IMG/VR virus record: IMGVR_UViG_3300031088_000775
Length of the DNA stretch: 64,000 bases
Direction: 5' to 3' (one strand)
From: an uncultured virus (IMG/VR IMGVR_UViG_3300031088_000775)
Taxonomy: Duplodnaviria > Heunggongvirae > Uroviricota > Caudoviricetes
The position numbers and the translations under genes were made by a program. The notes beneath the pieces are model-generated. The model did not search any database. It saw nothing but the letters and a program-made list of their open reading frames with translations, and was not told the origin of the DNA. Shown piece by piece: positions 11,475-62,922 of this stretch (the stretch's first letter is position 1; every line of letters begins with the position of its first letter).

Positions 11475-11529
11475 TCATGTCTTCGATATTAAAAATACTA
11501 TTATTATTTAATCTTTACGGAGGAGTTCA

Positions 11530-14237: not shown

Positions 14238-14321
14238 TTCTTACATATAGCAAACCAATTCTTCGACTACCACCGAAGATTTGATCCTTAGGGGTCAATC
14301 AATGAAAGAAAAGGAAAAGCA

Positions 14322-15668: not shown

Positions 15669-15845
15669 ATAAGTTTCGTCTTGCCCGATTATAGACGAAA
15701 AAACGGAGAGGTGCTGTTCCTAGTGGTAGGGGACATAGCACCTCTCTTTCTTTTTACCCTCTTTAGATTAACGAAATTAAAACTATACAAAACAATGAAA
15801 CTCATGATAGAATATAAACAAAACAAAAATGTCGTAGGAGAAAAA

Positions 15846-18084: not shown

Positions 18085-18240
18085 CGGGATAGCGCTGTTT
18101 TTAGACTGTAAAATCTAGATTTGGTGTAGTCATGCAGTAGACAGTATTTACTGCAAAAACTGTTAAAAACTGCAAAAACACCACCTAGTTAGACCCGAGC
18201 CTATCACGGCAAACTAGGTGGTGCTACTAGGACCGTTTTT
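18085..18240. repeat. Dispersed ~180-bp structured element, copy 1 (core loop inverted relative to flanks)
   Basis: CACCACCTAGTT(18179-18190)-21 nt-AACTAGGTGGTG(18212-18223); left flank GTCATGCAGTAGACAGTATTTACTG matches other copies. Confidence 0.85.
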
Positions 18241-18482
18241 AAGAGTTAGTATAAAATCTTAAAAACACTATTCTCAAGGGAAATTCAGTAAGCACACTTC
18301 TAAGTATTTAAGGAGCAGTTTGAACGAGTTACTAGAATAAAAAAAGAATGAAAGACTTTCTACAATAACCCCCCAATTTATAAATAAAAATAAAAAAGAG
18401 CCGCTAAAATTTTAGCAGCTCTTTTAAAGTATATACATAAGTATAAAGAAGATAACAGAGTAATTCTATAATTTATGAAGTA

Positions 18483-18922: not shown

Positions 18923-19843
18923 CTACAGAGAACTATTAGAAGATTTAAAAATATGCTCAAGGATAGACTTTAAAAGAAAACTATCTAGTACCTCATCTTC
19001 CCAAATATGCAAAAGTCGAATCCCTAACTGTTCTTCGCACAACCTACTTTTTAACTCATGGTATTCAGGGCCCTTAAAGACTTCACCATAACGAGTGAGT
19101 CCATTATCCATGAAGCGGGAATGAGTATCAAAATCATTAACCTCAATTGCTAAATTAAGACTTGGAATCATAAAATCTAATTCTAAAATTCTTCCATCAG
19201 TATTTCGCAAAGGTCTTTTATTACGAAGTATATCGTCAGGAGAAAGTCCAAAGTCTAAGAGTGCTTTAAAAACAATAGACTCTAACTGAGACTTCTCTTT
19301 ACCCTTACGACTATCAAACAAATCAAAATTAGCATAAGTAGGTATATTACGCACGTTAAAATAAGCCCTCACATCTTGAACCCTAGGTTTACGATTAAAC
19401 TTCTCAAAAAAGTTTTTAGCCCAAAGGTTAATACTTTTATACTCGACAGTCTTTTTAAAATCAAAGTCATCACTTAAATTAACGCAGATAGAGTCACAAT
19501 AATCAATATTCAAAGATCTACTCTCACACTTAAGATCTAACTGTGTAAAGCATCTCTTGCAATTTTTAATAATCTTCTTAAAGCAGAATTCTTGCTGAGG
19601 CGTCCCTTTAAAATCACCGCCACACATAGAGCATCTCTTAAGAATAGCTTTAGAATTAGCTAGAATGGCAGAACAGCTTTGCGAACAACTTTTAGGAATT
19701 CTTTTTCTACATGTATAAGAGTAATCTTTAAGACAATTACGACATTTAGCATTCTTTAGTTCACAGCAGAATACAGAATTAGCCCTCCCTATAAACTCAA
19801 TGTTACAGAGAGGGCATGTATGTAGATTCTTACTATTAACCAT
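18923..19843 (-). CDS. Cys-rich zinc-finger protein with C-terminal PD-(D/E)XK/Vsr-like endonuclease (homing-endonuclease-like)
   Basis: Multiple CxxC units; LELDFMIPSLNLAIEVND...LLHIWEDE. Confidence 0.7.
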   Translation of the reverse strand: MVNSKNLHTCPLCNIEFIGRANSVFCCELKNAKCRNCLKDYSYTCRKRIPKSCSQSCSAILANSKAILKRCSMCGGDFKGTPQQEFCFKKIIKNCKRCFTQLDLKCESRSLNIDYCDSICVNLSDDFDFKKTVEYKSINLWAKNFFEKFNRKPRVQDVRAYFNVRNIPTYANFDLFDSRKGKEKSQLESIVFKALLDFGLSPDDILRNKRPLRNTDGRILELDFMIPSLNLAIEVNDFDTHSRFMDNGLTRYGEVFKGPEYHELKSRLCEEQLGIRLLHIWEDEVLDSFLLKSILEHIFKSSNSSL

Positions 19844-21647: not shown

Positions 21648-24520
21648 AGATCTCTCTCCTTAAAGACACCATTTTCAGTAATAATAGGGACTATATCAAT
21701 CCCACCTTCTTGATGCAGACCAATATCTCGAGCTACCTGAATAAGCTTACGGGCTGGGCCAGTGTTCTTGCAAACCCAAACAACTTTCTTATATAGTCTT
21801 TTATCAGCCTTATATGCTCTCAAAGTGCGCTCATAAGAATCCAAAGCTTTATTGCTAATCTCAATCTCAACAGCAATAGAGTTAGGTGAGCCATCCGGAT
21901 TCCTAGGTCGCTTAATAACTAAATCGGGAACGTGATAAGCAACTCGCAAAGCCATAGGAGGATACAAAGCCCACATATACTCATTACCATACTGCATCTC
22001 AGGGCTATCACCAAATTCTGGACCGCCTGCTGCTTCCCACTGCTTGAATTCTTTATCAATACGACCAAGCAATTGAGGGCGATAAACATCCGAACGATCA
22101 AACATACGCATCTTACCAAAAGACGATTGAATCTCTAACTCAGACACTAAACTCTCTCCATAAATTCTTTTACCCTTATCATCAACCCTATTCAATGCTG
22201 GAAAACCATCTTGATTCAAAACATTAATATTAGCACCCCACAAATTTGCTGCAGTATTATTAACAGTGAACTGATGCGGGAACATGCTAAAAGTTAATTT
22301 AGACTCTGTAATACGAGGTAAATCATAACCACTCAAAATCATTCCAGCAGACGTTAAAAACCATATAGGGCGATTACCATAAATCTTCTTATCAATAACC
22401 AAGCCCTGCTGACGCAACTTCTTCAGCCTATTATAAGTAGTTCCAATAGCTTCAGAAAACATTCTAGACAATTGAGCGTCAGTAGCATAACGGAACAAAG
22501 CTAAAAATTGAAGCAACTCTCGATCTTTCTGACTAAAACGCAAACGATTATTACGCTTAAAAGCGTCCTTACCCTCTAAGGCTCGAACAATCTTATCAGC
22601 ACGAACCTTACGCTCAGACTCCGACTCATTCCAACCCAACGGACTACGCACACCCTCAAGCAAATCAGGATTAGCCTTAACTTCAGCCTTAGATTTAGCT
22701 AAATTCTTGAAAAACTCTAACTCAGCAACATTCATCTTCCCGTCTTTAGAAAGATAACGATACCTCTCTCTATCTTTAGACTCAACACTAACTGAATCGC
22801 CAGCACTTGCAACTACCTTAGAAACAACTTCCCCATGTTCATCAACAAGCACTTCACGCACATTAGATTTACGGAAACCAGTATCCAACGAATCAATAGG
22901 TACAGGTTTACTACGAGTATCAACAGGCTTACTAACAGGAGAATCAGCAGCAATACGACTCAACTCTTCACGAGCTACAGCACGATCACGCTTCATCTTA
23001 CCGCGAATCTTACTCTTCAACTCACGCTGCCCAGTCTTAACTTCAGCATTTTCACCAGTAGGAACAATATCCTCTCCAGCGTTAGAAACAACACGACTCA
23101 ACAACTCGCTCGAAGACTCACTAATACTAGAATCATTCTTAAACTTACTAAAAGCCTCTAACTCTTCATCGTCCCCACCAAACAACTCATCAAGCATACC
23201 ATCAAACGACTCATCATCACCAACATTATCAGCGGAATCGAAACCCTCAAAAGTTGAATTATCTTCCTCAAAGGAGCCAGGAATAAAACGTTTAGGTTCA
23301 GGCTTAATATTATCTACAGATGAATACTCAACAGAAGAATCATAATCAACATCATCTAAACTATACTTAGAAGAGCTACTCAATTCCGTCTCATCGTAAA
23401 ACTGAACCGTCTCATCAACAAGATTATCATCAAAACTTTCAGAAAAATCATCATCGAACTCTAATGAATCACCATCAATAAAACCATCTTCAACATCAGA
23501 GTAGTCTGAATCAAAACCTAGATCAGAGCCCTCAAGTGCACTTCTAGAATCTTTTTCTTCATCCTTAGCAAAGCCCGTGAACAACTCTCCATCAAGTGAA
23601 TCACCATCAGTTAAATCACTCTCAACAGACTTACCATCACCACTAAAAGAGCTACTCAAGCTTTCAAAATTATCACTCAAACTACTATTTGAAGTGTGCT
23701 CACCCTTATTACGATCACGATTAAAACTTAACTTAAATGGTTTATCAGATGTAGAACTGCTTTCTAAATCGTTACCATAAATACTATCTAAAGTATTACC
23801 GACTGAATCACCACTGCTAAAACCATCAGTCTCACTACTTCTCGAACTAATTCTAGAATCACTTACAGACTCTTTAAAAGCCTTACGGACATTAGGATTA
23901 AACTTAAACACAGGCTTAACTTCATCGCTACCAGTAGAATCATCACTTAAAGAGACATTACTAGAATCTTTAGAGCCCCCCACATGTGTGCTTTCACCAT
24001 TATTTTCATCGTTAGTAGAAAGAGAAACACCACTTAAAGAATCATTAATGAATGTTGAAAATGAATCATTAGTAGTACTAGAAACACTATCACTATCATT
24101 TAATACTTCACTAACAGTATTATTAGCATGAGTAGAATCATTCGAATCATTAGACTTACTAGCATTATCAACATATGTATTATTACTTAATAAAGTACTA
24201 GAATTATCAGGTGTGCTACTACCGTTAGACTCAGGTGTGCTTAAAGTACTTTTATCAACACTAGTTGACTCTGTATCTACATCATTAGTAGATGGTATAT
24301 TTAAAGGTTTACGAATCCTTTGAGAATTAGGTCTACTTGCATGGTTCGAGCCACTTTCAGACTCTTTATTATTTGAGGGTATATTTAGAGGTCTCATTCT
24401 TACAGGCTTTCGATCATTAGAATCACTGCCTCTATTAGATTCATTTTCAGAATTTTTGAAAGCATTTAGATTAATAGGCTTACGCCGAAGAGAATTAGAT
24501 TCATTGTTATTTACTGACAT
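21635..24520 (-). CDS. Replication-relaxation (Replic_Relax-like) protein with ~600-aa Ser/Asp-rich disordered N-terminus
   Basis: C-terminal wHTH (KDRELLQFLALFRYATDAQL...RLKKLRQQGLV...WFLTSAG), PHQ, VPDLVI, AVEIEISNK, i.e. a PD-(D/E)XK-type core. Confidence 0.7.
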   Translation of the reverse strand: MSVNNNESNSLRRKPINLNAFKNSENESNRGSDSNDRKPVRMRPLNIPSNNKESESGSNHASRPNSQRIRKPLNIPSTNDVDTESTSVDKSTLSTPESNGSSTPDNSSTLLSNNTYVDNASKSNDSNDSTHANNTVSEVLNDSDSVSSTTNDSFSTFINDSLSGVSLSTNDENNGESTHVGGSKDSSNVSLSDDSTGSDEVKPVFKFNPNVRKAFKESVSDSRISSRSSETDGFSSGDSVGNTLDSIYGNDLESSSTSDKPFKLSFNRDRNKGEHTSNSSLSDNFESLSSSFSGDGKSVESDLTDGDSLDGELFTGFAKDEEKDSRSALEGSDLGFDSDYSDVEDGFIDGDSLEFDDDFSESFDDNLVDETVQFYDETELSSSSKYSLDDVDYDSSVEYSSVDNIKPEPKRFIPGSFEEDNSTFEGFDSADNVGDDESFDGMLDELFGGDDEELEAFSKFKNDSSISESSSELLSRVVSNAGEDIVPTGENAEVKTGQRELKSKIRGKMKRDRAVAREELSRIAADSPVSKPVDTRSKPVPIDSLDTGFRKSNVREVLVDEHGEVVSKVVASAGDSVSVESKDRERYRYLSKDGKMNVAELEFFKNLAKSKAEVKANPDLLEGVRSPLGWNESESERKVRADKIVRALEGKDAFKRNNRLRFSQKDRELLQFLALFRYATDAQLSRMFSEAIGTTYNRLKKLRQQGLVIDKKIYGNRPIWFLTSAGMILSGYDLPRITESKLTFSMFPHQFTVNNTAANLWGANINVLNQDGFPALNRVDDKGKRIYGESLVSELEIQSSFGKMRMFDRSDVYRPQLLGRIDKEFKQWEAAGGPEFGDSPEMQYGNEYMWALYPPMALRVAYHVPDLVIKRPRNPDGSPNSIAVEIEISNKALDSYERTLRAYKADKRLYKKVVWVCKNTGPARKLIQVARDIGLHQEGGIDIVPIITENGVFKERDLWTI

Positions 24521-24851
24521 TCGATTGACCCTTAGAGATTTTTTAAAGTTTGAAACCTTTAATATTCAATATCAAAATTAACTAGAATTGGGTCGGATAC
24601 TACTAAGTACTGTTTTAGATGCAGTTATTATACATATATAAAAACTAAAGTCAACTTTGACAGCGACTTACTAACGACCTGAGCGCTAAAATCGCAAATC
24701 ACCAAAGATGATTTGAAGACAGTAGAAACCTGTTAAGTAACTATAGGTACTTTAATACGTGCAATACACTATATGTATTTAGGTAAATGTACTAAAACCA
24801 TTAAATGTGCTTTAACTATTAAACGTATAGATTCATAGCGGGGCTTGCGTT

Positions 24852-25039
24852 AGAGTGGTGGCCTGCCGGTAGGGTGAGCCTTGGAGCCTGGCGGCTCCTG
24901 CGTCTCACTGCGCTTCGGAGCTGGCGCTCCTTCGCTTCTTTACTTCACTGCTGGCGCAGTTCGTAAAGCCTACCTGCAGTCAAGTCAGCGAGGCTGCCTG
25001 TAAGAGAGTCAGTGCCTGCCTCACTTACCCCACCACTCT
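24852..25039. other. Multi-branched GC-rich hairpin element
   Basis: AGAGTGGTGG/CCACCACTCT closing stem enclosing three hairpins with identical TGGC loops (24883-24898, 24917-24930, 24947-24960). Confidence 0.7.
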
Positions 25040-25081
25040 GTAGGGTGCTTTCGGACACTTGAACTCACTTGAAACCAGTGA

Positions 25082-25471
25082 GTGTGCGGTTAAACTTTAA
25101 CCTCGCTACGTAAGTCTGACTTCGTGAATCCTTACTGAAGTGCTTCAAGAAACCCTCCTACTTAAGAAACTATCTCGCCTGACATTACGTGTGTGCGGTA
25201 CACTCCATGAAAGCTAAAGCGTGTGCGGTGCACTGCTTCAAGTTACTATCTAAAGTTGACTTAAGGAAACCTGCTCGGTACCCTCACTGAAAGAGAGGTG
25301 TGTGCGGTACACTGTGACTCGAGAGGCCACTCTCCCCGCCAGGGCTCAAGGGGCCACCCTGACTTGACACTTACTCGCCCACCTGTAAGGTACGCGTGTG
25401 CGGTGACCTACTCGACTTCACTTACGTGAACCCCGTGTAAACCATCTCGCCTGACACTACGTGTGTGCGGT
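25082..25471 (+). repeat. Iteron-like direct repeats GTGTGCGGT (6 copies)
   Basis: Copies at 25082, 25191, 25221, 25300, 25396, 25463; two extend to ATCTCGCCTGACAyTACGTGTGTGCGGTrCACT. Confidence 0.8.
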
Positions 25472-25499
25472 GCACTGCTTGATTGAAGTCTAACTCAAA

Positions 25500-26400
25500 G
25501 GTGAGTGACCCGACGGTACTAAACTCACGAAGCGCGAAACAGCTGACTGTACCGAACCAACTCTAAAGTGGTGCAGAGGAGCGTAAGCTGTAACTCGCTA
25601 GGTGAAACAGAACGAGAAGCTCGGAGTGTGAAACCGAACCGTAAGGGGCGGGTGCAACACGACTGAAAGCTGAAGCGGACTGGAGAACCGCGAACCAGCT
25701 GAAGCGTGAACGAAACCACAAAAGAGTGTGAAGGTACACAGCGAAGCGCTGGAGTGACACACCCAAGAAACCAAGGGTGATAAACCCGCGAGACTACAAA
25801 CCAAAGGAAAAGCTTGAAACGCAAAGCTAACTGAAGGCTGCGATGCATCCCCCTCAGGGGGTGCAAGCAAGCCGAAGGCACTAAACCGCCACCACAACCG
25901 AACCGCCCCAGCGGTGAGAAGCGCGATCCGCCAGGATCCGCTTAACCCGAGCGCCAGCGAGGGCCGCCACGCAACCACAAACAAAACCGCAACCCCCCCT
26001 TACAAATACTCGGGTACCGAGTGAGTGAGACGTGTGCGTCGAACTGTAAAGAGAGTCACTTGTGTTGTGAGTCTAATGTAGCGTACTAATAAATGAAGTG
26101 AGTCGTGTTTAGCGTATTGATCAAGTAAGCGGTGTGAGTCGTGTATAGCGTGAGTGTTGAAGAAGAGTAATTTGAGTGGTGAATTTGAGAAGCTTAGTGA
26201 AGACTGTGTGAATGGTATTTGAATCGTGTCTGGCGTGATTGGTTGAGAAAGCGACTGTTTGATGAGATCTGATGATTACGAAGACTGTGTCTAGGATGAT
26301 TGCGTGTGACTGTGTAAATGGGAAAGGAGAGAAAAGAGATGAGAGTAACGGAGACGGGGAGTGGAGAGGTAGAGAAGCTGAGGGTGCTGGAGTGGTCTGG
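25500..26400. other. Putative replication origin region (strand-skew switch)
   Basis: Plus strand is A/C-rich up to ~26007 and G/T-rich after the ACTCGG-GTA-CCGAGT palindrome (26008-26022); GTGAGTCGTGTnTAGCGT-like repeats at ~26067-26240. Confidence 0.55.
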
Positions 26401-26442
26401 TTGTGGAGTGGAGAATTGTTACGCTGAGCGCTAGGCTGCGGC

Positions 26443-27360
26443 GGGGAATGCTGGGGGTGTTTTTCTTTTTTTTGTTTTTGTTTTTTGTTTGTTGTGCTGA
26501 GTCTCTGCGGTTTGAGATTGTTTTAAGTGTGGTGAGTATTTTGAGTGTGGGGAATGCGGTGGAGTGTTTTTCTTTTTTTGCGTGTAATATTTTGTGTTTT
26601 ATTTTTTTTGGAAAATTTTTGTATTTTTGTGCTGGTGGGGTTGACAGGGATTCTAGTTCTTACAGTTTGGGGTATTGCGTTTTGCGTTTGGTCGCTGTCA
26701 ATAGGTTGGCGCGGTGTTTTTGAAGTATTTTTAAATCTTCTTGTACTCTAGTGTTTTACTTCTATCCTATGAGTGCTACACATTGTAGTATCTCTATTGG
26801 TTACATGAAATAAATTCAATTGCGAGGGGTGAGGCTGTTTCTAGAGCGGTTAAAGGTTTTTCGAGAAGTTTTAAAGAGCTTACTTTAGTGGCGAAGGTAG
26901 TGCTTTAGACTATCCTTCGCCACGTTGAGTGTTTTTATTTTAGAGTAGCTCTTCGTCAATTAGCCGCTTGTATTCAGTGTCTGAATTTTGCACTGGTACG
27001 CTGATGAGGTTTTCATTCCATCCTACTTGGATATCCCAAATTTGGAAAGTAGCTACACTGTTGTCCTCTAGAACTAATTCAGCCTCTAGTACTCCTTTTT
27101 CGAAGACGATTGTCTTTCGGCCGTTATCTTTGTTGATGTAGGAGTTAGTTGTTGGGGTATTCTTTGAATTTTCCATAATTAAATCTTAACATAACTTCTT
27201 CTAGAAGTAAAACATTTATTCATAGGCTCTGGTTTCTTTGGGGATGAGCTTTAGTAAGCTGTATTTTGGGTTGTGGGTAAATTTGAATTGTTACTCTGAG
27301 CGATGTGTGCGAACAGTGTTCTTCGGGGGTGGGGAATGCGGAGAGTGTTTTTCTTTTTTG
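26443..27360 (+). repeat. Three copies of GGGGAATGCnGnnGnGTGTTTTTCTTTTTT(T)G
   Basis: Copies at 26443-26474, 26549-26580, 27331-27360. Confidence 0.7.
26940..27176 (-). CDS. Hypothetical protein
   Basis: 78 aa; leaderless ATG 6 nt after TGTTAAGAT. Confidence 0.6.
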   Translation of the reverse strand: MENSKNTPTTNSYINKDNGRKTIVFEKGVLEAELVLEDNSVATFQIWDIQVGWNENLISVPVQNSDTEYKRLIDEELL

Positions 27361-27526
27361 TTTTAATCCTATGTATTGCTTTCTTTAATTGTTTATGTTT
27401 TGAGTGCAGTGTTATTTGTTGAGTGTTTTTGTTTGCGTTATAGAGTTTTTGTTTTTTGAATTATGATTGTTGTTTGTTATAGTTGTGTTGAATGGTAAGA
27501 CTAAGTGGGGTGTGAGGGGTTTTAAA

Positions 27527-32410: not shown

Positions 32411-32549
32411 ATCTAGTTAAGATAGTCTCTGTAATTTGAGATATTCTTTTCCTCTCGTAGTCAATTAAGGTCGGATCGGTAATCTATCTTCGACTCTTGG
32501 GAGTATTTATGAATGCTTTTTGAATGAATACTGTTTGAGGCAGTATTTT

Positions 32550-32715
32550 TACTGTTTTATAGATCGAGTAGAAACTGCGCTACTAAGCGCGTCTAGTTAG
32601 ACCCGAGGCTATCACGGCAAACTAGGTGGTCTTTTCGTGTTTCTATGCAGTTTTGACGGAAAATGCTGTTTACTGTATGACTATACCCTAAGAAGCTTTT
32701 TGCTGTCTTAGACTG
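32550..32715. repeat. Dispersed ~180-bp structured element, copy 2
   Basis: AGATCGAGTAGAAACTGCGCTACTAAGCGCGTCTAGTTAGACCCGAGGCTATCACGGCAAACTAGGTGGTCTTTT...ACTGTATGACTATACCCTAAG. Confidence 0.9.
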
Positions 32716-36625: not shown

Positions 36626-36807
36626 CTAGATCTAGTTGCTTACTACTGAAAAGCGCGATTCACGATTGAAAAATATTTATGAATCGCGCTTTTTGTTTGA
36701 AACTCGTAAGTATTGATGTATAGTTGTATTTGTACGAACCACGAAAACAAAAATGGTTCAAAAAATAAATTAAACTTTAAAAACAAAAACTTTCAAGGAG
36801 TTAAAAA

Positions 36808-37820: not shown

Positions 37821-37997
37821 GTCGAGCCTAAGCAGTCTATAGCGTCGTTTTTACTTCTTAGGGTAGAGTCATACAGTAGACAGTATTTACTGTCAAAACT
37901 GCATAGAAACACGAAAAGACCACCTAGTTTGCCGTGATAGCCTCGGGTCTAACTAGATGCGCTTAGTAGCGCAGTTTTCGCTCGATCTAGAAAACAG
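37821..37997. repeat. Dispersed ~180-bp structured element, copy 3 (opposite orientation to copy 2)
   Basis: Near reverse complement of copies 2 and 5. Confidence 0.9.
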
Positions 37998-38046
37998 AAA
38001 AGTTTTACCTTATTGACTGAGTTATGAAAGAGATGAGTTTGATCTA

Positions 38047-39218: not shown

Positions 39219-39244
39219 CTTTTACATTACTTTAAAACAAAAAA

Positions 39245-39323
39245 GAGACCACCTAGTTTGCCGTGATAGCCTCGGGTCTAACTAGGTGGTCTCAATAATG
39301 TAGTTTCTACTCGATCTAGAAAC
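39245..39323. repeat. Dispersed structured element, copy 4 (partial)
   Basis: GAGACCACCTAGTTTGCCGTGATAGCCTCGGGTCTAACTAGGTGGTCTC...AGTTTCTACTCGATCTAGAAA. Confidence 0.85.
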
Positions 39324-39391
39324 CTGATATATTTTCGAGAACAAGAATTTTAGCAAATATTCTTATAGAAAAGTTACTTCAGAAAGACTTT

Positions 39392-43117: not shown

Positions 43118-43255
43118 TTTTAATTCCTTGGGTTAGAGATGGGGGCATTTGAAAAATGTTTTTAGTGTCAAATACAACTATACACGAAAACTTTTAAAAG
43201 GAAAACGTATCTAATAGCAGAGCTTTTGAAAAAACGCTGAGCGACAGTTATTTTT

Positions 43256-43431
43256 CAGTTTTCTAGATCGAGTAGAAACTGCGCTACTAAGCGCGTCTAG
43301 TTAGACCCGAGGCTATCACGGCAAACTAGGTGGTATTTGCTGTATTTTCGCAGTTTTGCAGTGAAATGCTGTCTACTGTATGACTATACCCTAGACAGTA
43401 AAAACGACGCTACAAGACGCTTAGGCTCGAC
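43256..43431. repeat. Dispersed ~180-bp structured element, copy 5
   Basis: About 70 bp identical to copy 2 through the hairpin, plus the conserved ACTGTATGACTATACCCTA...CTTAGGCTCGAC tail. Confidence 0.9.
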
Positions 43432-43576
43432 ACGTAAAGTTCAGCTTTGAGTGTCTCTCTAATAAGAATTTTAGGCAAGTCGCTAATCTAAGTTCATTAA
43501 TGAAAATTGTGTCTAAAATTAAAGACCTGTTGTATAGTGGTTTTCATATGAAAGTACCTAAAACAGAGGAATAAAT

Positions 43577-45284: not shown

Positions 45285-45453
45285 TTTCAGATCCTTTAGA
45301 TTTGAGTTTTTGTAATTCGTGGTTCGTACAAATACAACTATACATGACTTTTTGCGCTTTGCAAACACTTGAGGAAAATTTTACTAAAATGCGCGAGGCT
45401 TTTTATTTTTAAGCCTCGCGCATTACTAAGTCTATTCAAACAAGAATCAGAAA

Positions 45454-47138: not shown

Positions 47139-47600
47139 TCATTTAACAGTCAGAATATCTAGGTTAACATCTAACTAAAATTCGTATTTGAATCAAAAGA
47201 GGTGAAGTAAGTTCAAACCGAAAGAAAGTTAGATGTTGATCTATTCCATAATACCAAAAGTATGCAGAAGTTTTCAATTGCGGGAATAATTGTTTTTGGT
47301 TGGTTGGTTGGAGGTTACCCGGTAAGGGCGGAGGGGGGAGCAAGGCTTGGGTGGCGAGGGACTTGGTTTCGCGGGCGCATATACACCTCAAGTTAAAGTC
47401 CATGGTAGGTAAGGTAGTTAGCGACAGAAAACTGTAGGTTTCTAGAAGTTTCAAAAACCGAATCTTTAGGAGTTCAACTCTCAATAGTAAAAGTTATAGA
47501 GGAATTTGCATTCTAAAATGAACTCCAAAAACCACCTTTGAATCTTACGGATTGCTGAAATTATGAACCCTGAATGTTTGAGGGCTTTAACTGAATGCCT

Positions 47601-47873
47601 CTACGAATTGAGCAGTCGAGTGAACATCGAGTCAAGAAAATCCGCTACAGAACGTAGAGTGTCGACTGAATAATTCTCAGCAATGAGATCGAAGTGATCA
47701 GAAATAGTATTCATCATTAGATCAACAGTGTTGTTCTCACGAGCAACTTTAGAGACAGCGTCGACCTGGTCAGCAAAGGACTCCAGCATACTCGCAGCTT
47801 CGCGGTCAGAGGCATCACGAAGGGAGGATGCCTTGTTGATTAGTTCAAACTTGACTACCGATCCGATGCTCAT
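47601..47873 (-). CDS. Small hypothetical protein
   Basis: ATG 47873 after AAGGA; promoter motif. Confidence 0.65.
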   Translation of the reverse strand: MSIGSVVKFELINKASSLRDASDREAASMLESFADQVDAVSKVARENNTVDLMMNTISDHFDLIAENYSVDTLRSVADFLDSMFTRLLNS

Positions 47874-48246
47874 TTTTAAATCCTTTGCCAATTTGTCGTT
47901 CGTTGATTTTCAATAACAACTATACACGATTGCTTCAGATATTAAAAACAACTATGAGTTAACTAGAAGTGGCGTTAGAAGTTGCAGCGAGAGCGTCGTT
48001 TTTTGGCGGCGTGGGTAACTACGTGGGAGGGTTGTATCTGGGTGTAGGGGCGGTGGCTTCGCGTGCGCGTATACACCTCAAGTTAAAGTCCATGGTAGGT
48101 AAGGTAGTTTTAGACTACTAATAAATGATTTTTCTTTTACTAACTATTACAGTCTTCCTTTGCTATCTAGTTCTATAATTGTGGTTAATGCGATATTAGA
48201 AACTGTAAAAATATTATTCTCTCAAGAAAGAGGTAAAGCACTACCC

Positions 48247-48549
48247 ATGTTTGGAAAACTTAAAGAAGCGTCAAAGCCGTCCACAAATTATGTCACTCTA
48301 AGAGAGTTGGCTGAATCGAAGAATGCGAAGGTTAGAGCTGCAGTCGGCGCGAATAAGAATACTCAATCCCACGTACTCGAGAATCTCGCTAAAGATATTA
48401 AGCCTAAAGTTAGAGCCGCGGTAGCGACAAATCCAAATCTACCTTCTAACGTTTGGGAAATTCTCTCTAAAGATTCAGACGCTCTTGTTCAATCTGCACT
48501 TAATGAGTCCCACCCAAGCCAACCTGAAGAGGCTAGATATAGAGGCTAA
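48247..48549 (+). CDS. HEAT/leucine-rich-variant repeat protein
   Basis: LAESKNAKVRAAVGANKNT / LAKDIKPKVRAAVATNPNL / LSKDSDALVQ repeats; GAGG RBS before ATG 48247. Confidence 0.7.
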   Translation: MFGKLKEASKPSTNYVTLRELAESKNAKVRAAVGANKNTQSHVLENLAKDIKPKVRAAVATNPNLPSNVWEILSKDSDALVQSALNESHPSQPEEARYRG

Positions 48550-49000
48550 AGAAACTTAATTAGGGAGGTGCTAGGTAATTCAATCACAGTTAGCGCCTCC
48601 CTTAAAGAGACGGCTAATCAAACTGGATAAACTCTATTTCGAAGTTTCTTTTAGTTAAATAAACAGAATTTTTGAGTAATATGAAAACTGCGTTTTTCTG
48701 TCGCTAACTACCTTACCTACCATGGACATTAACTTGAAGGGGTATGGGGACCCTACTAGCTACATCTCCACTCACCCCCTGGAACCATCCACGAGTCCGA
48801 CCAAATGGGCTAAACCAACCCTCAAAAGATAGACACTCCCGGGGTAAACTTAATACTGGAATCCATAGCGTTAAGACTGAAATTAAATCTAATGCTCTTA
48901 CTCTTAAGAGGCACCTCATTTTGAAGCACCTCTTAAGAGTATTTTAATTTTAGTAAATAGATTAAGAGTCTTTATCTATTAAAAGAAAATTTTTATAGTT

Positions 49001-49816
49001 TTAGCATCCAGCCTTCACACCCTTTGAATAGATATTTTTAATATTAGTCAAAGACTTGCCAGTAGCCTTCTTCTTTGTGTAAACTCCCTGTCCAACGCTA
49101 CCATGAAGATAGTAAGCCATTTGATCAGCTTGAACTTCTAGGCTCTTATTTCGGATAGCCTTATTCCACCCTGAAACGTTATTCTTATATTTTCCAGTCC
49201 ACTGTAGATGATGACTGAACTCGTGGACGAAAACAAAGCCCATTCGCGAAGACTTTACATGAGACTTAGCGATAGCAATGGTTCTGGTATTTGGATTATA
49301 GTGAGAGACCCTACCCGAAATTTGCTTGATCTTCACTCCTTTACAACTCTGCTTTAGATACCTTTGTGCGTCACTGTAAGTTTTTACCTTGCTGATTGCA
49401 AGCTTCTTAGGAGTTGCTTTCTTCACTTTAGTTTTAGGGTTTGCTGCAGTGATATTAGTCAGATACTTGGAGGAGACCCATCCTGATAGCTTACCCGACT
49501 TGATTTGAGACCAACCTGACTTAGTCTTTACTACAGTCACGGTAGCGCCCTTTTTAAGAGTTCCAACCTTCTTGTACTTTACGCCAGCATTCTTTCGTAC
49601 ATTCAATGCAGACTTAGTCTTCATTGACTTAGCTTTAGCCGCTGTAGCAATTTTTACTCCAGTCGGGGTTGCGATAGTCGAAACACCTGCAGTCTTAATA
49701 GTATTCTGGATAGTTGTTGTTGGTGCTGCTGCAAACGCGTTTGCTGGAAGGTTAACTCCACCGGCTACAATAGCCATTGCTAGAGTTCCTGATGCGAGAA
49801 TCTTTTTAAAATCCAT
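49001..49816 (-). CDS. Secreted SH3b-domain protein with zincin (HExxH) domain
   Basis: Signal peptide (AFA), LNVRKNAG...GWSQI...GWVSSKYL, HEFSHHLQ...EVQAD. Confidence 0.75.
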   Translation of the reverse strand: MDFKKILASGTLAMAIVAGGVNLPANAFAAAPTTTIQNTIKTAGVSTIATPTGVKIATAAKAKSMKTKSALNVRKNAGVKYKKVGTLKKGATVTVVKTKSGWSQIKSGKLSGWVSSKYLTNITAANPKTKVKKATPKKLAISKVKTYSDAQRYLKQSCKGVKIKQISGRVSHYNPNTRTIAIAKSHVKSSRMGFVFVHEFSHHLQWTGKYKNNVSGWNKAIRNKSLEVQADQMAYYLHGSVGQGVYTKKKATGKSLTNIKNIYSKGVKAGC

Positions 49817-50563
49817 TTTTGTATTACTCCCCAAAAGTTAATATTGTTCTGTTAATAGTTAGAAGTCTTTTTAGAATACAGCTTTAAAAACTCTAAAATA
49901 GATCGGTTTGAAGGGCCTTTCGGAATATCAGCATTGAATGCCCTTCAAAGCAACAAAAACAACTATATAATAATCTTCTTAGAATTCAAAACTACTAAGT
50001 AATTGACTCAAATGTTTCTAAAACAGATTCTAGCGTGACATTTTAAAGAATTGCGGCCCTTTAAAATACTGTCTAAAACTACCTTACCTACCATGGACAC
50101 TAACTTGAGGTGTATACGCGTGCGCATAGCCCGCGCAACACTCGATCACGGCCTCAGCCCTCCCAAACAAATCGCCCCTTCAAACAAACCAACCTCTTCA
50201 AAGATAACCTCTATAGAAAAGATTATCTCCCCGCCGCCTACAACCTAAACTAGAAGCATCATGAGATATCTGAATAGCACTTTTGACCTAGTAAGTCCTG
50301 CTTTAAAAAGAATAAGACTCACTCTTTAGATCTTTAATTGTTGTCTTCGTATTATAGTCGATTTGTCATATACTCTAAACAGCGGCACCAGACAGTCTCG
50401 CAGTAGCTAGTTTTAGGTGGGTATTTGTTCGTCTCTTCGCTATGCTGCTGAGAGAACCGGGTTTACTGACTGTTTAGCGTATACTAAGAAAGCAAAGCTT
50501 CCATGTTAACTCAAAACAGATTTTGGAAGCTTTGCTTTACTGTAGTTTCGCTGATTTTTAATG

Positions 50564-51538
50564 CTATGCGCTGACGCTAAACTCATTGTTAGAATCAGCA
50601 ATCTTGAAGTCGATGGCAACCCCCAAGGATTCAGCATAACGCTCTACATTCTTTGCGGGGCTGTTAGTAGAATTTGCGAAGATCGTTACAGATCGGTGAG
50701 TCATATTCGCCATCTTGCTGAACTTGTAGGCGCTGATACCGCGGTCAACTCGAATCTTATCCAAAGTTTTAGGCAGTTCGCTAATCGCAACTTCAATTTC
50801 TTCATTTTCAGCCTTAACGAAAACAGTGAGCTTCTTATTTAGAGCTTCAGCGATCTTATAGAAGTTGTTGAAACCACGACCTCGCTTTTCAGCAATCATA
50901 ATAGACTGTGGAGAAACCCCCGAGGTTCGCGATAGGGAGACCTTATCTAGACCCGCATCTTCGCGAAGCTTCTTAAGGGTGTTACCAATCTCTACACCGA
51001 AGTCAGTGTTGCGCTCGTTTTCGCGTGAATTAGCAGAGAAATCAACTCGTCGGTCATTACCTTCACCCGAGGTTGAAATATTGAGCCCTTCAACTTCGAA
51101 AGTGAATGACAGTTCATAGTTAAGCGCTTCTAGAAGGCTTTGGATAGTTCGTACAGTAGGGTTAGCGCTATTTCGGAAGTTCTTGATTCCCTGAATAGTT
51201 AGACCTGACATTCGCGCAAGTTCAGTCTGGGTGATTTGAGTCAGTTCAATCGTTTCATTGATGATTGTCTGAAGGTCATCAAGGCGGACCTCTCGAGACT
51301 CTGTTTCACCGTTCTTGATGAAGGCGCGAATAGTCACCTCTAGAGCATTTGCAACTCGCTTGATTGAAGAGATAGTTCCGGGATTCTTTTCGAAGAGGTT
51401 GACTGAGTTCCAGTTTAGTTCGCTCTGATCAGAAACGAATCCGACAGTGAGACCCTTTAGCTCTCGAATGTTCTTCATGAGCGGGCCAATGTCTAGCAAG
51501 TTAGTAATGTTCGAATCAATCGTTACAGTGGTAGTCAT
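50564..51538 (-). CDS. Transcriptional regulator with four XRE-type HTH domains
   Basis: Four HTH-like units (IRELKGLT.., TQTELARMSGLT.., LREDAGLD..SGVS, IRVDRGIS..); looks like a duplicated two-HTH module. Confidence 0.75.
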   Translation of the reverse strand: MTTTVTIDSNITNLLDIGPLMKNIRELKGLTVGFVSDQSELNWNSVNLFEKNPGTISSIKRVANALEVTIRAFIKNGETESREVRLDDLQTIINETIELTQITQTELARMSGLTIQGIKNFRNSANPTVRTIQSLLEALNYELSFTFEVEGLNISTSGEGNDRRVDFSANSRENERNTDFGVEIGNTLKKLREDAGLDKVSLSRTSGVSPQSIMIAEKRGRGFNNFYKIAEALNKKLTVFVKAENEEIEVAISELPKTLDKIRVDRGISAYKFSKMANMTHRSVTIFANSTNSPAKNVERYAESLGVAIDFKIADSNNEFSVSA

Positions 51539-55359: not shown

Positions 55360-55640
55360 AATCCTGTCAATAAGTTTTTCAAAGTTTTGAGTTTCACGAA
55401 GATTTGTTTTCGTGGTTCGTACAAATACAACTATACATCATTCCTTCGAGTAATGCAAAATCTTGCTGAGCTTTCAAAAAAGTTCAAGCTTGTTAAGGGT
55501 CAAGATCTTAAAAACAAGTAGAGTAAAAACAAAAAGACCACCTTCTTTTGAAAGATAGCCTTCATGTTGTTTTCAAGCTATTTGGTTCGCAAGTAACTTG
55601 AAAGTTTATGAGAATCAGAACAGTACGTAATTTTTAAAAA

Positions 55641-55997: not shown

Positions 55998-56202
55998 GAT
56001 TCCATATCCTTTGAATTGTTTAGTAGTTCCTGACACATACAACTATACATGAAACTCTAATAAGTGCAAACAATATTAGCAGGCGCAGTAAGAATCAACA
56101 GTCAATTCTTAAAAATGATACAGACGCAATAGGTCTTCAGAGGCTGGAGTAAGCAATATTTTGTAAAATTGTTAAAAATCAGTTGAGAGCAGCATATTTT
56201 AT

Positions 56203-56375
56203 TGTTTTCTAGATCGAGTAAAAACTGCGCTACTAAGGCCACCTAGTTGGACCCGATAGCACAACGGCAAACTAGGTGGTCTTTTGCAGTAAAATGACAG
56301 TTTTGCAGTGAAATACTGTCTACTGTATGACTATACCCTAAGAGCCATTTTTGACTCTATAGACCGCTTAGGCTA
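56203..56375. repeat. Dispersed ~180-bp structured element, copy 6
   Basis: CCACCTAGTTGGACCCGATAGCACAACGGCAAACTAGGTGG with conserved flanks. Confidence 0.9.
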
Positions 56376-57137: not shown

Positions 57138-58019
57138 CTAATTATGAGAACTCAAAAATTCTCTAATCGCATCTTCAGTCTCTACACGATTCTTCATCCA
57201 TTCATCAGACCAAACATGCAACAAACAAATCCCTAAATCTTTACAAAGTCGTTCTTTCAAAGCCTCACGCGAAGACTCAGTACCGTCAGCAACATCCCTC
57301 AAATAAGCCTCTCTATCATGCCAACGAATTCCATTGTACTCTATCGCTAACTTCAAGCTAGGGATGTGAATATCCAACTGCATTGCCCCACCAGAGCCAG
57401 GCCTCGAAATAACAGAATAGTCCCCATTAATCACCTCAACAGTTTCAGAAAGACATTCTTTAACAAACTCAAAGACTTCTAACTCTTCCTTTGAAGCGTG
57501 ATTGTAGTACCAATTCTTCCCATACCGCTCTTTAATAGTCGATTGAGCTTTCTTCACCATCTCTTCAATACGCTCAGGATCTGAGTAAAGCTTAGACATT
57601 CCTTCTTTGCGGGCTTTCTCTTTTGCTTCATCAGTTTTAGTTATATCAAAATCAGAAAGTATTTGCCTAAACCTTTCTTTTGTTATTCCATAATGATTTG
57701 CGCAAGTCTTTAATGATAAATTTTGAGTAATATATAAATCAAAGACCTCATCCCTTGGAATTACGTTCTGAACTAGAGGTTCAGGTTTTATATTAGTCTT
57801 GAAGACTGACTCACCTCTTGACTCAAATTCTTTAAAATTTTCTAGTGGCTGAGGCTTTATTTTACGCTGGCTAGCGTCAATTCCATTCTTGTTCATAATA
57901 CTTATAAGTTTGCCACTAGAGAATCCAAATATTTCAGGTAAGTCTGTGGATTTTATTCCTTGATTAATAAATACTTCAATAAGATTCTCGATAGTCACTG
58001 GAAGATACTCTTTACTCAT
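57138..58019 (-). CDS. HTH-containing PD-(D/E)XK/Vsr-like endonuclease (homing-endonuclease-like)
   Basis: QLDIHIPSLKLAIEYNGIRWH...LLHVWSDEW; N-terminal HTH-like segments. Confidence 0.7.
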   Translation of the reverse strand: MSKEYLPVTIENLIEVFINQGIKSTDLPEIFGFSSGKLISIMNKNGIDASQRKIKPQPLENFKEFESRGESVFKTNIKPEPLVQNVIPRDEVFDLYITQNLSLKTCANHYGITKERFRQILSDFDITKTDEAKEKARKEGMSKLYSDPERIEEMVKKAQSTIKERYGKNWYYNHASKEELEVFEFVKECLSETVEVINGDYSVISRPGSGGAMQLDIHIPSLKLAIEYNGIRWHDREAYLRDVADGTESSREALKERLCKDLGICLLHVWSDEWMKNRVETEDAIREFLSSHN

Positions 58020-58020: not shown

Positions 58021-60180
58021 TTATTTCAACTCAATCGCCGTTTCTAAAACTTCAGGCTCCGGCTGCTTAGCATAGGCCTCTTGCATTTTCGCGTATGGTT
58101 TAATTTGCGCTACCGGACAGAGTTTTGCAGCTATGCACCATGAGCAAATAAATGACGGTTTGTACTCAAAAGTATTCGTCTCAGCGAAGTTATCTAGCGC
58201 CTTGTCTGCTTTTTCGACATCTTCGATAACTTTTTCTAGAAGTTCTTGATCGTCTACATCAACATTGACTACATCTCGAGCGACGGGGAAGATTAGTCTT
58301 GCGCCTGATACATCAATGTCATCCTGTCGTAAGAGGATAGTGTAGATTAGCTGCTGGCGAGCCTCTGGCCATCCATCCATTGATTTTAGATGCTTCTTAT
58401 ACTTCTTTGCCTTCGCCCCAGTATTGTGAGTTAAAGTGAAGTTTTCGCCAAACTGATATAGAGAATCCTCAGCATCTACCCCAATACATTGAGTCGGTAC
58501 TGATTCTACCTTCTTGATATTTCGGATATACTTTCGGGTAGACATATATTTAGTCTTTGATGTTGGAGCGTAATCTTCAACAAGTTTTCGCTTTCTTTCG
58601 AGAAGGAAAGGATTTAATGAGAACGTGGAGAACTCTAAAGAATAAACAGGCTTGTCATAAACTTCATTGTTCTTCCATGAAAGTTTCTTCTCAAGTACAG
58701 CGTGATACGGAGTTATTCCGAAAGTCGAAATAAGAGACATTACGTTATAGAACAACTCTTCTTTAATTCCCCCAAAGACAGCTCTATTTCGAGTTTTGTT
58801 CCATGTTCCGTCTGAATCCATTAAGCCTTGTAATAAGGCTAATCTTTGGTCGTGGCTAGCAAATAAGTATTCTTCAGGAATATGCTTGTTATTTTGAAGG
58901 TTATTCCTCTTTAAGAGAGTACTTAGACTTACATTGTATCCATCTCTTCTTGACAATCCCTTAGTTTTTGCAGCGTATTTACATTCATCACAGAAATCAA
59001 TATGAGGATGACTCTTATGAAGATTTCCAAAACTACAGCCAGCCTCAATCAATTTCGGAAAACCTATGCTATAATGACCAGACTTTTTGTCAAGAATCTT
59101 TTTAGCTGTAGGCCAGATTTTCTGCAGTCTTTCGAAAGTTTCATCAATATCTTGGTTCCCGACAGAAATGTACCCACCGCTACTATCTCCGTCACCTAAC
59201 CAGTATCCAAGAAGATATGGGTCAATTGGTAGATCTTTTTCTGGTAGATCTAGAGGTTCTGGGTTTACAATTCGGAAAGCAGCTGTTAAAGGATCTGAGA
59301 ATTTTTCGAACAATTCTTCTGTACTCAAAACCTCAGAAATAAACTTACCAGTTTTTTCACCAGCATGTTTTTTGTGGTTGTATTCAACCTGCCATAAATG
59401 CACATTATCAGATGTAACAGTCTGATTTGACGTAAATTCAAGCTCGTAACAATCTCTATTGTGAATGCCAGACTTTTTGACAATCTTCGTGGGTTTACCA
59501 TTAGAGCCGAGAACATCTTCACCTTCTTTAAGCTCAGCCATAGTCTTAAAACCAGTGGGTGTCGGGATAGGAGTGTCTAATGCTAACCCCTTCCAATCCT
59601 CTACTACTATCGACCCATCATTACGTTTAGTATTCTCAGTAACCCGGTCTATAAACCCTAGAGTCTGTCGTTTAGCTTTACCAATTTTACCTTTGACGAA
59701 GATTTCTAAACCGTCTTGAGGTTCCTGCCCTCTTACTGAAAGTTTAGCGATTTTGATGTTTTGCGGTTTAGCTCCCATCGTGTAATAACCATTGACTGCA
59801 TCTCGAATCCAAGCGATTACTTCAGGGTTAGTGGACAAGTCTACATATTCTTCTGACTGTAATACAGTATCGACTTCTTCTTTAATTCTGTCGGTAGTTC
59901 TTTCTTCAGGTGGGAGTGCGAAGAAGTTTTCCATAACTTGATGGAATAGGGATCCGCGGCGTGCAGCATTGTCTGGTTCTTGCTCGATTACTTCGGACTC
60001 TACGAATGAGCTGATCGCCCATTTTGCTGGACATGTTTCGATGCCAGTGATTAGAGAGGCGGAGATGTTTTTCTTTTCGAAAGCTTCTACAACTTTAGGG
60101 TGCACTAGATGGACACCTTCATAATCCATAGAGACTAGAATTTCTTGATTGCCGTTTTCGTCTAAATACTTTTTAGCCAT
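58021..60180 (-). CDS. Cas4/AddB-like PD-(D/E)XK exonuclease interrupted by an intein
   Basis: SAS..TCP, RGSLFH, GFIDRV, EDWK|TG, QQLIY, CSWC..LCP (4-Cys cluster); extein is 330 aa. Confidence 0.85.
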   Translation of the reverse strand: MAKKYLDENGNQEILVSMDYEGVHLVHPKVVEAFEKKNISASLITGIETCPAKWAISSFVESEVIEQEPDNAARRGSLFHQVMENFFALPPEERTTDRIKEEVDTVLQSEEYVDLSTNPEVIAWIRDAVNGYYTMGAKPQNIKIAKLSVRGQEPQDGLEIFVKGKIGKAKRQTLGFIDRVTENTKRNDGSIVVEDWKGLALDTPIPTPTGFKTMAELKEGEDVLGSNGKPTKIVKKSGIHNRDCYELEFTSNQTVTSDNVHLWQVEYNHKKHAGEKTGKFISEVLSTEELFEKFSDPLTAAFRIVNPEPLDLPEKDLPIDPYLLGYWLGDGDSSGGYISVGNQDIDETFERLQKIWPTAKKILDKKSGHYSIGFPKLIEAGCSFGNLHKSHPHIDFCDECKYAAKTKGLSRRDGYNVSLSTLLKRNNLQNNKHIPEEYLFASHDQRLALLQGLMDSDGTWNKTRNRAVFGGIKEELFYNVMSLISTFGITPYHAVLEKKLSWKNNEVYDKPVYSLEFSTFSLNPFLLERKRKLVEDYAPTSKTKYMSTRKYIRNIKKVESVPTQCIGVDAEDSLYQFGENFTLTHNTGAKAKKYKKHLKSMDGWPEARQQLIYTILLRQDDIDVSGARLIFPVARDVVNVDVDDQELLEKVIEDVEKADKALDNFAETNTFEYKPSFICSWCIAAKLCPVAQIKPYAKMQEAYAKQPEPEVLETAIELK
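58423..59589 (-). mobile_element. Class 3-type intein with LAGLIDADG homing endonuclease (389 aa)
   Basis: GLALDTPIPTP...HLW...LLGYWLGDG...LLQGLMDSDG...TQCIGV...LTHN|T. Confidence 0.88.
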
Positions 60181-60379
60181 GATTTTTACCTATGTTTAGT
60201 TCTGTTATTTTTTGTTTTATAGACTTTGAGTCTTTTTTGTATAGATATGTTTTACCAAAAATATATGAGGTAATTCTTATCGCTATTAGTACTGGTGGCG
60301 GACTTAGCAAGAAAGCCATGTCTATTCATTTTGAAAGTGTTCTTCAAGCGAAGTCACTAGCTTATTTCAAACTTTTGGA

Positions 60380-60556
60380 GTCGAGCCTAAGCGGTCTATA
60401 GAGTCGGTTTTAGCTCTTAGGGTATAGTCATACAGTAAACTGTATTTTCTGTTGAAACTGTCATTTTACAGCAAAAGACCACCTAGTTAGCCGTTATAGC
60501 CTCGGGCCTAACTAGGTGGTCTTAGTAGAGCAGTTTCTACTTAAAGTCTAAAACAG
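60380..60556. repeat. Dispersed ~180-bp structured element, copy 7
   Basis: AAGACCACCTAGTTAGCCGTTATAGCCTCGGGCCTAACTAGGTGGTCTT with conserved flanks. Confidence 0.9.
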
Positions 60557-60664
60557 CAAAAATACTGCTTAAGTTTGTTATTTTAAGAAAAGAAAGTTTA
60601 GAGTACTCTAAAGAGAATAAAAGATTTATTTACTCTTTTTAAAAGATTCTCTAAGAATTAATTA

Positions 60665-62722: not shown

Positions 62723-62806
62723 TGCCTTCTAAATTCATATAGGAATCAAGATATCTTCAAAAGATTAGAATGCTAAATTAATGTCTGCGAGATTGTAGCC
62801 TAAGAA

Positions 62807-62890
62807 CGAAAAGACCACCTAGATAGCAACGCTATAGTTGAGTTATCTAGGTGGTCTTAGTAGCGCAGTTTCTATTAGATCTAGTTTACA
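62807..62890. repeat. Dispersed structured element, copy 8 (divergent, compensatory changes)
   Basis: AAGACCACCTAGATAGCAACGCTATAGTTGAGTTATCTAGGTGGTCTTAGTAGCGCAGTTTCTA. Confidence 0.8.
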
Positions 62891-62922
62891 GTGAAATACT
62901 AGAACATATTTCTGCTTTGAGA

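Follow-up and report, generated by a model that had tools for sequence, protein, structure and literature searches.

The window analysed here is a 64-kb stretch of DNA from the uncultured virus record IMGVR_UViG_3300031088_000775 (IMG/VR; Caudoviricetes). It contains four sites, A to D, arranged > > < < between single genes at 47-51 kb, which belong to a non-coding repeat family with oriented copies dispersed over other loci as well. The sites are confirmed as real; they are conserved, non-coding and specific to one lineage. Three of their features need explanation: the invariant asymmetric core, the neighbouring tract constrained in composition and not in sequence, which keeps to one side and one strand in every copy, and the placement at junctions between gene cassettes. 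Our favoured reading, which we hold tentatively, is that of an oriented cassette-boundary module that may act on transcription of the C-rich strand and may also provide homology for recombination resembling that of the promoter early stem-loop (PeSL) elements. An earlier reading of this DNA without database searches (the sequence-only reading) had proposed a candidate invertible segment, and that label should be dropped.

Allowing up to three mismatches, the 32-nt core TCAAGTTAAAGTCCATGGTAGGTAAGGTAGTT matched four times in the 64 kb and was absent from each of 100 shuffles. The three differences among the cores are confined to two adjacent positions, which read AA in A and B, AT in C and GT in D. 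Sites A and B share an exact run of 40 nt (47380-47419 at A) and are 95% identical over 56 nt. A and C share 34 nt exactly, comprising the remainder of the core and AGCGACAGAAAA (91% over 55 nt), and B and D share 28 nt, comprising the remainder of the core and TTAGAC (88% over 66 nt including the left side); the other pairs have exact runs of 22-23 nt. The B and C cores are inverted copies, 97% identical over 32 nt. A left extension, GCG.GCGC..TATACACC, is common to A, B and D and divergent in C. Mean column identity across the copies is 66% over 250 nt, with only the core and short adjoining parts aligning. The core has little dyad symmetry; besides the central CCATGG, 4 of 14 positions were symmetric in a comparison by hand. 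The sequence-only reading had described the four oriented sites, the identity of A and B over 40 nt, their shared upstream motif, the T variant of C and D, the crossed pairing of the 3' flanks (A with C, B with D) and the separation of single genes by the sites. All of these descriptions hold, with the additions that the upstream motif is present in D and that the sites are non-coding.

Read in the orientation of the core, the unit is about 125-150 nt long and consists of a 5' block resembling GAGGGTTGGTTT, a G/T-rich tract, a GC-rich hairpin and the core. In type 2 units (B and D) the core is followed directly by TTTTAGAC, and in type 1 units (A and C) an insert of about 19 nt comes first. 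The G/T-rich tract occupies about 100 nt before each core (G 37-47%, T 26-31%, C 13-19%), and the tracts of different copies do not align, their composition being kept and their sequence not. Just 13 stretches of the 64 kb reach a |G-C| of 24 or more in 80 nt, and three of them are tracts A, B and D; the only two canonical G-quadruplex (G4) motifs on either strand of the 64 kb lie one each in tracts A and B. The 5' block is found at -89 (A), -86 (C) and -89 (D) from the core; the blocks of A and D each have three substitutions relative to the 12-mer of C, and B has weak matches only. The hairpin stands directly before the core in B, C and D, closes on ATACACC or ATACCCC, and is not followed by a T-run.

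The copies share no open reading frame (ORF), all three frames stopping in or just after the core. Two coding readings were tried and rejected. On the C-rich strand the ATG within CCATGG would open frames of 79, 24, 36 and 51 codons (those over A and D also stand in the ORF list), but these lack a Shine-Dalgarno sequence and, compared by hand, have nothing in common past 11 residues. The G-rich strand would encode Gly/Val/Trp-rich peptides, as expected of any G/T-rich DNA, in a frame that differs between copies. Rfam 15 gave no match at gathering scores in the 64 kb, and its E-value mode (E of 5 or below, 47-51 kb) gave only two weak matches, both away from the sites. ARAGORN found no tRNA. 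Folds of 146 nt at the sites were no better than those of shuffles in all eight cases on the two strands (z -1.0 to +1.2). No terminal inverted repeats or target duplications of the unit could be read from the site alignment.

Three genes lie between the sites (Table 1). The middle one, called a HEAT-repeat gene in the sequence-only reading, matches the Pfam leucine-rich repeat variant (LRV), which has a HEAT-like fold. A promoter form recurs throughout the element, with TTTGCA, about 17 nt, (A/G)TG and then TATAGTTGT, a 9-mer that has 17 exact copies in the window (for example at 36719-36727 (+), 45334-45342 (-) and 55427-55435 (-)); in several copies a conserved leader, ATTTGTACGAACCACGAAAAC, follows the promoter. 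The uniformity of this promoter suggests that one dedicated regulator or sigma factor may read it. Each gene between the sites has its own promoter word, and by reading of the sequence the 47601 gene and the LRV gene are each followed by a stem-loop. The sites thus mark the borders between units that are complete in themselves, which is compatible with the cassette picture of the sequence-only reading. The promoter word is absent from the cores, and none of the 24 promoter-like sites in 45-52 kb falls inside a core. Both of the sites in the region that resemble intrinsic terminators lie elsewhere than the repeat sites. Unit type matches gene direction in all four cases, with convergent genes facing the type 1 units and co-directional genes following the type 2 units; by chance such a correlation would arise with a probability of about 1 in 3 to 1 in 6.

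Eight public sequencing runs hold parts of the region. Four were compared, all as Logan contigs, in which minor forms are invisible; run X1 is probably the source of the window, X2 is from an isolate and X3 from a dairy metagenome. Contigs of X1, X2 and X3 end at each of the four sites, with 89, 75 and 73 contigs, respectively, piled on 7.5 kb. Summed depth in X1 is 141-255 in the site bins versus 27-44 beside them. The core together with the right flank of A through 47436 continues into other DNA in two contigs of X1, two of X2 and one of X7, and this continuation begins with CTTTTAGAC or CTTTTTAGA. Further contigs join 47427 to 50354 (one each in X1 and X2) and 48110 to 50354 (one in X3). 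Since these contigs carry the core with other neighbours, the family has more than four members, with both flank types represented elsewhere; the additional copies for which the sequence-only reading had advised a search are thus found on contigs of the same and related strains. The continuation CTTTTAGAC is the motif of B and D, so that type 1 resembles a type 2 flank to which an insert of about 19 nt was added. A joint of 47448 to 48706 in X1 is better explained by the way in which the near-palindromic right flank aligns than by a rearrangement.

Runs X2 and X3 keep all four sites, in the same places, together with all three genes. Among the differences listed, the B core has no change in either run, and the listed pieces elsewhere differ by about 2-9%. 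The A locus of X2 has a different tract and a D-like left part (joint 47307/50125), and that of X3 has a B-like left part (joint 47296/48060), which points to exchange among copies.

Beyond these strains the repeat was not found. A DNA search with 46-52 kb gave no match in phage or plasmid collections, and no exact 22-mer or 20-mer of the core occurs in IMG/VR or in one genome per GTDB species. A single Joint Genome Institute metagenome match to the core (L001) lies inside a coding gene with unrelated flanks and was rejected as a chance match. A 961-amino acid (aa) protein encoded in the window, with a weak Replic_Relax match, has three distant IMG/VR relatives (58-62% identity) on contigs of 309, 189 and 345 kb, and the core is absent from all three. 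Protein searches found no relative in genome contigs for the gene with helix-turn-helix (HTH) matches beside site D, and none in viral contigs for the SH3 gene.

Table 1. Features of the four sites, the genes between them and the neighbouring repeats (window coordinates).
Feature	Position	Strand	Basis or remark
Site A, promoter-like site downstream on C-rich strand	47277-47248	-	10/12 with TG
Site A, G/T-rich tract	47258..47385	+	G 51, C 16 of 128 nt
Site A, 5' block GTTGGTTGGTTG	47299-47310	+	matched at -89 from core
Site A, G4 motif	47326-47360	+	canonical motif scan
Site A, core	47388-47419	+	0 mismatches to TCAAGTTAAAGTCCATGGTAGGTAAGGTAGTT
Site A, right flank, type 1 (AGCGACAGAAAA...)	47420..47442	+	common to C and extra copies through 47436
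Cassette gene, no known family, 90 aa (ATG at 47873)	47601..47873	-	Pfam scan
Promoter word TATAGTTGT of 47601-47873 gene	47916-47924	-	exact word
Site B, promoter-like site downstream on C-rich strand	47916-47924	-	exact TATAGTTGT
Site B, G/T-rich tract	47965..48070	+	G 47, C 16 of 106 nt
Site B, G4 motif	48013-48042	+	canonical motif scan
Site B, core	48078-48109	+	0 mismatches to TCAAGTTAAAGTCCATGGTAGGTAAGGTAGTT
Site B, type 2 flank TTAGAC	48110-48115	+	directly after core
Promoter-type -10/discriminator word TATAATTGT of LRV gene	48174-48182	+	one-mismatch form of TATAGTTGT
LRV-repeat gene	48247..48549	+	Pfam LRV/LRV_2, E 1.5e-8
Site C, right flank, type 1	48683..48705	-	repeat comparison
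Site C, core	48706-48737	-	1 mismatch, AT variant
Site C, hairpin (GGGGGTG with divergent ATACCCC) and weaker G/T-rich tract	48738..48846	-	G 37%, C 19%
Site C, 5' block GAGGGTTGGTTT	48812-48823	-	reference 12-mer
Site C, promoter-like site downstream on C-rich strand	48830-48857	+	9/12
Cassette gene, secreted SH3 plus Zn-peptidase-like protein	49001..49834	-	Pfam scan
Promoter word TATAGTTGT of 49001-49834 gene	49959-49967	-	exact word
Site D, type 2 flank and core	50069..50108	-	flank 50069-50076, core 50077-50108
Site D, core	50077-50108	-	2 mismatches, GT variant
Site D, hairpin and G/T-rich tract	50109..50241	-	+ strand: C 50, G 17 of 125 nt
Site D, 5' block AGAGGTTGGTTT	50186-50197	-	matched at -89 from core
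Site D, promoter-like TATAGT downstream on C-rich strand	50353-50358	+	read from sequence
Separate high-copy repeat	50354..50485	+	rod-like hairpin, inverted ends, fold z -2.15
Predicted protein, 324 aa, several tandem Cro/C1-type HTH matches (four-HTH)	50564-51538	-	460 nt from D
Second repeat family, eight copies	18123-18241, 32535-32701, 37821-38001, 39235-39335, 43249-43441, 56183-56374, 60370-60569, 62806-62900		

As a cassette-boundary module, the unit would act on transcription crossing the cassette junction, and its core would be recognised by a sequence-specific factor. A transcript of the C-rich strand would begin with the core and hairpin and continue for about 100 nt as C-rich, G-poor RNA, a type of sequence on which Rho loads; a promoter-like site would then follow within about 90-250 nt (Table 1). 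The C-rich strand is 37-47% C and 13-19% G in all four units and has no excess structure; A and C alone follow a co-directional gene. Constraint on the composition of one strand is a signature of function at the single-strand or RNA level. The layout on the C-rich strand parallels the terminator-then-promoter design of a second repeat family in the window (described below), and for this reason we favour a factor-dependent boundary or insulator; the unit would be the factor-dependent counterpart of those intrinsic terminator-plus-promoter cassettes. As a by-product, the exact runs of 22-40 nt could serve as substrates for homologous exchange, with no dedicated invertase needed. Exchange between A and B would yield a deletion or a mini-circle, and exchange between inverted pairs an inversion. 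We regard this combination of roles as possible rather than probable.

Several observations weigh against it. With no co-directional gene upstream of B and D on the C-rich strand, only two of the four sites would terminate a known transcript, and both the 47601 gene (before A) and the LRV gene (before C) appear on reading to have their own stem-loop after the stop codon. Rho sites are not known to depend on an invariant core of 32 nt. The anatomy is uneven as well: tract C falls under the skew threshold used above, the minimum-energy fold of site A differs so that the hairpin is present in only three of the four copies, and covariation in the hairpin amounts to a single compensatory pair (in C, A to C in the 3' arm with T to G in the 5' arm), which is suggestive only. 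No gain, loss or exchange of a cassette was seen among the three strains. The number of copies outside the window comes from contig depth and not from an assembly count. Finally, absence of the core from the three relatives with 58-62% protein identity implies that the element is dispensable for such replicons.

The alternative that survives best, though we think it unlikely, is that the sites are asymmetric protein-binding sites whose core is bound as double-stranded DNA by a monomeric or multi-domain protein. They could be polar fork barriers like Ter, operators of the four-HTH regulator, or scattered partition sites; partition or operator sites were also the alternative that the sequence-only reading had offered. 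An invariant, non-palindromic 32-nt core that varies at just two adjacent positions would suit such a protein, as would the position of B between divergent promoters, where no known transcript crosses. The two orientations form two opposed groups, and > > < < is the classic layout of a fork trap. The four-HTH protein is encoded close to D and is kept in two of the three relatives (L005/L007, G001 9.5-10.5 kb; L006, G003 335.6-336.5 kb), where its homologues are 23-33% identical and lie about 9-10 kb from the contig end. Those relatives nevertheless lack the core. No Ser or Tyr recombinase, Y1 transposase, Tus or RTP was found among the 68 window ORFs compared with Pfam. Cumulative GC skew tracks gene direction; between 40 and 56 kb it stays flat, with no turn at 47-50 kb. 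Operators would be expected at a fixed spacing, which the cores do not show, their distance from the nearest -10 element ranging from 57 to about 200 nt. A site read by protein alone would also leave the strand-asymmetric tract, the fixed 5' block and the hairpin unexplained.

Somewhat less likely again is a selfish or relic repeat with no function of its own, similar to a miniature inverted-repeat transposable element (MITE) or a repetitive extragenic palindromic (REP) element, left by past spread or homogenised by gene conversion. The copies are dispersed in both orientations relative to genes, their boundaries are mosaic and subtype-specific, and they are confined to one lineage, with none in the three relatives or in the phage, plasmid, IMG/VR or GTDB collections. 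The element is also rich in other selfish DNA (four homing-endonuclease genes and a LAGLIDADG insert). A mobile unit, however, would be alike over its whole length, and here conservation is limited to the core; terminal inverted repeats and target duplications are lacking, as is a Y1 or RAYT transposase among the window ORFs compared with Pfam. The four sites occupy identical places in X2 and X3. That the composition of the tract is kept while its sequence turns over points to selection.

The G-rich strand could instead be the functional one, which we judge a little more doubtful still. It might be transcribed and form an R-loop or G4 hotspot at which the core marks a programmed recombination or priming site, as at the Neisseria pilE G4 and at R-loop origins, or it might give rise to a small RNA, about 130 nt long, in which the 3' end is conserved and the 5' half varies. 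The G4 motifs of tracts A and B are the only canonical ones in the 64 kb, and C and D have none. Site A has a promoter-like TATGCA-18-AATAAT-TGT ending just before the 5' block (by reading, against the consensus) and D has TTTAGA-17-TATAAT (10/12) upstream in the right direction, but the promoter search found none for B or C. A T-run follows the core or the insert, and no intrinsic terminator was called at any of the sites. The match of unit type to gene direction would also fit, but it could easily have arisen by chance, and the folds of the strand are no better than those of shuffles.

A more ambitious version, in which a protein-read core and a G4/R-loop strand together make a new kind of programmed recombination or replication-control site that sets polar barriers or break-prone points at cassette junctions, seems to us very improbable. 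If it were true, single-gene cassettes of a giant linear mobile element would be exchanged, inverted or excised in a targeted way, as integron-like gene capture without an integrase. An actual integron attC array was rejected, there being no integrase among the 68 ORFs, no complementarity between the 5' block and the core end, and mixed orientations.

Least probable, and in our view highly so, is a dedicated inversion or shufflon-like system in which a recombinase encoded elsewhere flips segments between inverted cores. The sequence-only reading had taken an inversion between B and C as the source of the flank mosaic and had seen 48110-48705 as the invertible segment. Two copies in each orientation, the near-identity of B and C, the pairing of right flanks across inverted copies and the single genes between sites are all as that idea would have it. 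The A/C-type flank occurs in copies elsewhere, however, and no local flip is therefore needed to explain flank classes that are subfamilies of a dispersed repeat. The sequence-only reading had noted the absence of a recombinase from the window, as our Pfam scan bears out, although a gene elsewhere on the replicon would lie outside a search confined to 64 kb. The core has no dyad symmetry beyond CCATGG. The whole LRV gene with its promoter word lies inside the B-C segment, so that a flip would change nothing obvious in expression. Contigs, which cannot show minor forms, contain no joint at the B x C flip positions (48109/48705), and none of the three opposite-strand joints falls at the B or C crossover positions; a joint of the left side of D to the right flank of A is explained by the D-like left part of the X2 A locus. 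If the variable dinucleotide (AA in B, AT in C, GT in D) were the crossover, the sites would be incompatible. An inversion system thus lacks all the defining features that could be examined here, and for the flank mosaic, its one positive argument, a simpler origin is available.

The second repeat family has eight copies that are 75-93% alike, with a long perfect-stem hairpin (ACCACCTAGTT...AACTAGGTGGT) and a T-run; five copies also have a conserved promoter-like block, TACTGTATGACTATACCCTAAGA, plus GAC.CTATAGAC. By its motifs it looks like a terminator-plus-promoter cassette of the PeSL type. A 22-mer from it had no match in IMG/VR. At least 11 copies of a different family, similar in general design, occur in relative G003. 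A separate repeat at 50354-50485 begins with the promoter-like TATAGT and directly follows the core at other loci of the same strains. Its summed depth in X1 is 407 versus about 35, with no second copy in the window, and it could be a small RNA gene or a MITE.

The element that carries the sites is AT-rich, giant and phage- or plasmid-like, and its relatives suggest a size of roughly 190-345 kb. The G+C content of the window is 33-45%. Genes on one strand at 5452-17969 form a Tad-pilus-like set (two T2SSF, T2SSE, a CpaB-like protein and a ParA/TadZ-like ATPase), interleaved with TcpE, an AAA_10 ATPase and an NAD-dependent DNA ligase. This mixture of pilus, conjugation and repair genes is odd for a group whose relatives are classed as viruses. 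Other genes encode a T4-type RNA ligase, whose nearest phage homologues are actinophage proteins at 25-30% identity, and a RadA-like protein. The 345-kb relative contig is classed with inverted terminal repeats. Four ORFs match homing endonucleases in PHROGs (free-standing, HNH/DUF4379-type), and a LAGLIDADG segment, probably an intein, lies inside a PD-(D/E)XK nuclease gene. Together they are found at 57-1160, 10047-11474, 18923-19843, 57138-58019 and 58021-60180. This load of selfish genes is unusually high.

Next to the gene for the 961-aa Replic_Relax-like protein is a region of about 3 kb (24520-27500) without a convincing gene, in which GC skew flips from -0.36 to +0.41. Its part at 24.84-26.0 kb is GC-rich and has at least five copies of GTGTGCGGT(A/G)CAC, and the G/T-rich DNA that follows has repeated GGGGAATGC...GTGTTTTTCTTTTTT units. 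The region is a candidate origin of replication or transfer, and the homologous side of G003 (20-34 kb) is skewed to the same degree. The G/C-skewed tracts of G003 outside 20-34 kb are mostly within open frames and share no core. An apparent parallel in G003, > > < < repeats at 15-18.5 kb, was rejected, since these repeats correspond to the conserved C-terminal end of paralogous genes that have no relation to the window. In that family (L009, 14658-18456) six paralogous genes, < < < < > >, share the C-terminal motif PSINFVELVDW and surround a 156-nt C-rich intergenic tract (16996-17151), with no family match in the window.

The element group is almost undescribed, and a literature search for the type found no papers. 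Its genes for Tad pili and conjugation occur together with ligases and many homing endonucleases. A repeat that joins an invariant core to a tract conserved only in composition would offer, at such junctions, a handle on how orphan genes are organised and exchanged in these genomes, whether it proves to insulate transcription, to serve as a landing site for a protein or to act as a joint for recombination. Flanks that form a tidy > > < < mosaic can come from the subfamilies of a dispersed repeat and are no evidence of an inversion switch.

Among known systems, shufflons and invertible segments (Rci/sfx, Hin/hix) likewise have short inverted repeats bracketing small DNA segments, but the present sites come with no recombinase in the window and no dyad-symmetric core, alternative gene ends or promoter-out arrangement. 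Ter sites (Tus-Ter, RTP-Ter) are similarly asymmetric, intergenic, about 23-32 bp long and in two opposed orientation groups. They differ in having a Tus or RTP protein and a skew signal, both missing here, and the present sites are spaced 0.6-1.4 kb apart and carry a tract and hairpin in addition. REP/BIME and BOX elements are also multi-copy, modular and intergenic, with a hairpin and either orientation, whereas the present units are not palindromic overall, are conserved in the core only, and reside on a giant mobile element, in whose window no gene of RAYT type was seen. A Rho-dependent terminator such as lambda nutR-tR1 has the same succession of conserved sequence, hairpin and about 100 nt of C-rich, G-poor, poorly structured RNA before the next promoter; here only two of the four units follow a co-directional gene, and no antiterminator or NusG-like gene was seen in the window.

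For T4-type phages, two reports describe PeSL cassettes as short repeats between genes, placed on either side of single orphan or non-essential genes where the genome is plastic, and they show homologous exchange, modular shuffling and mini-circle formation (PMC2839356, PMC4122927). The four sites differ from PeSLs in having neither a sigma-70-like promoter nor an intrinsic terminator, in occurring in both orientations with no cassette exchange seen between the three strains, and in their invariant asymmetric core and G/T-rich tract, neither of which is described for PeSLs. As with PeSLs, short conserved intergenic repeats here flank single orphan genes in a large phage-like genome, and the second repeat family of the window, with its hairpin, T-run and promoter-like block, fits the PeSL design well. 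Dispersed junction repeats are already known from large phage genomes; the core-plus-tract anatomy found here is unusual among them, and its function is putative.

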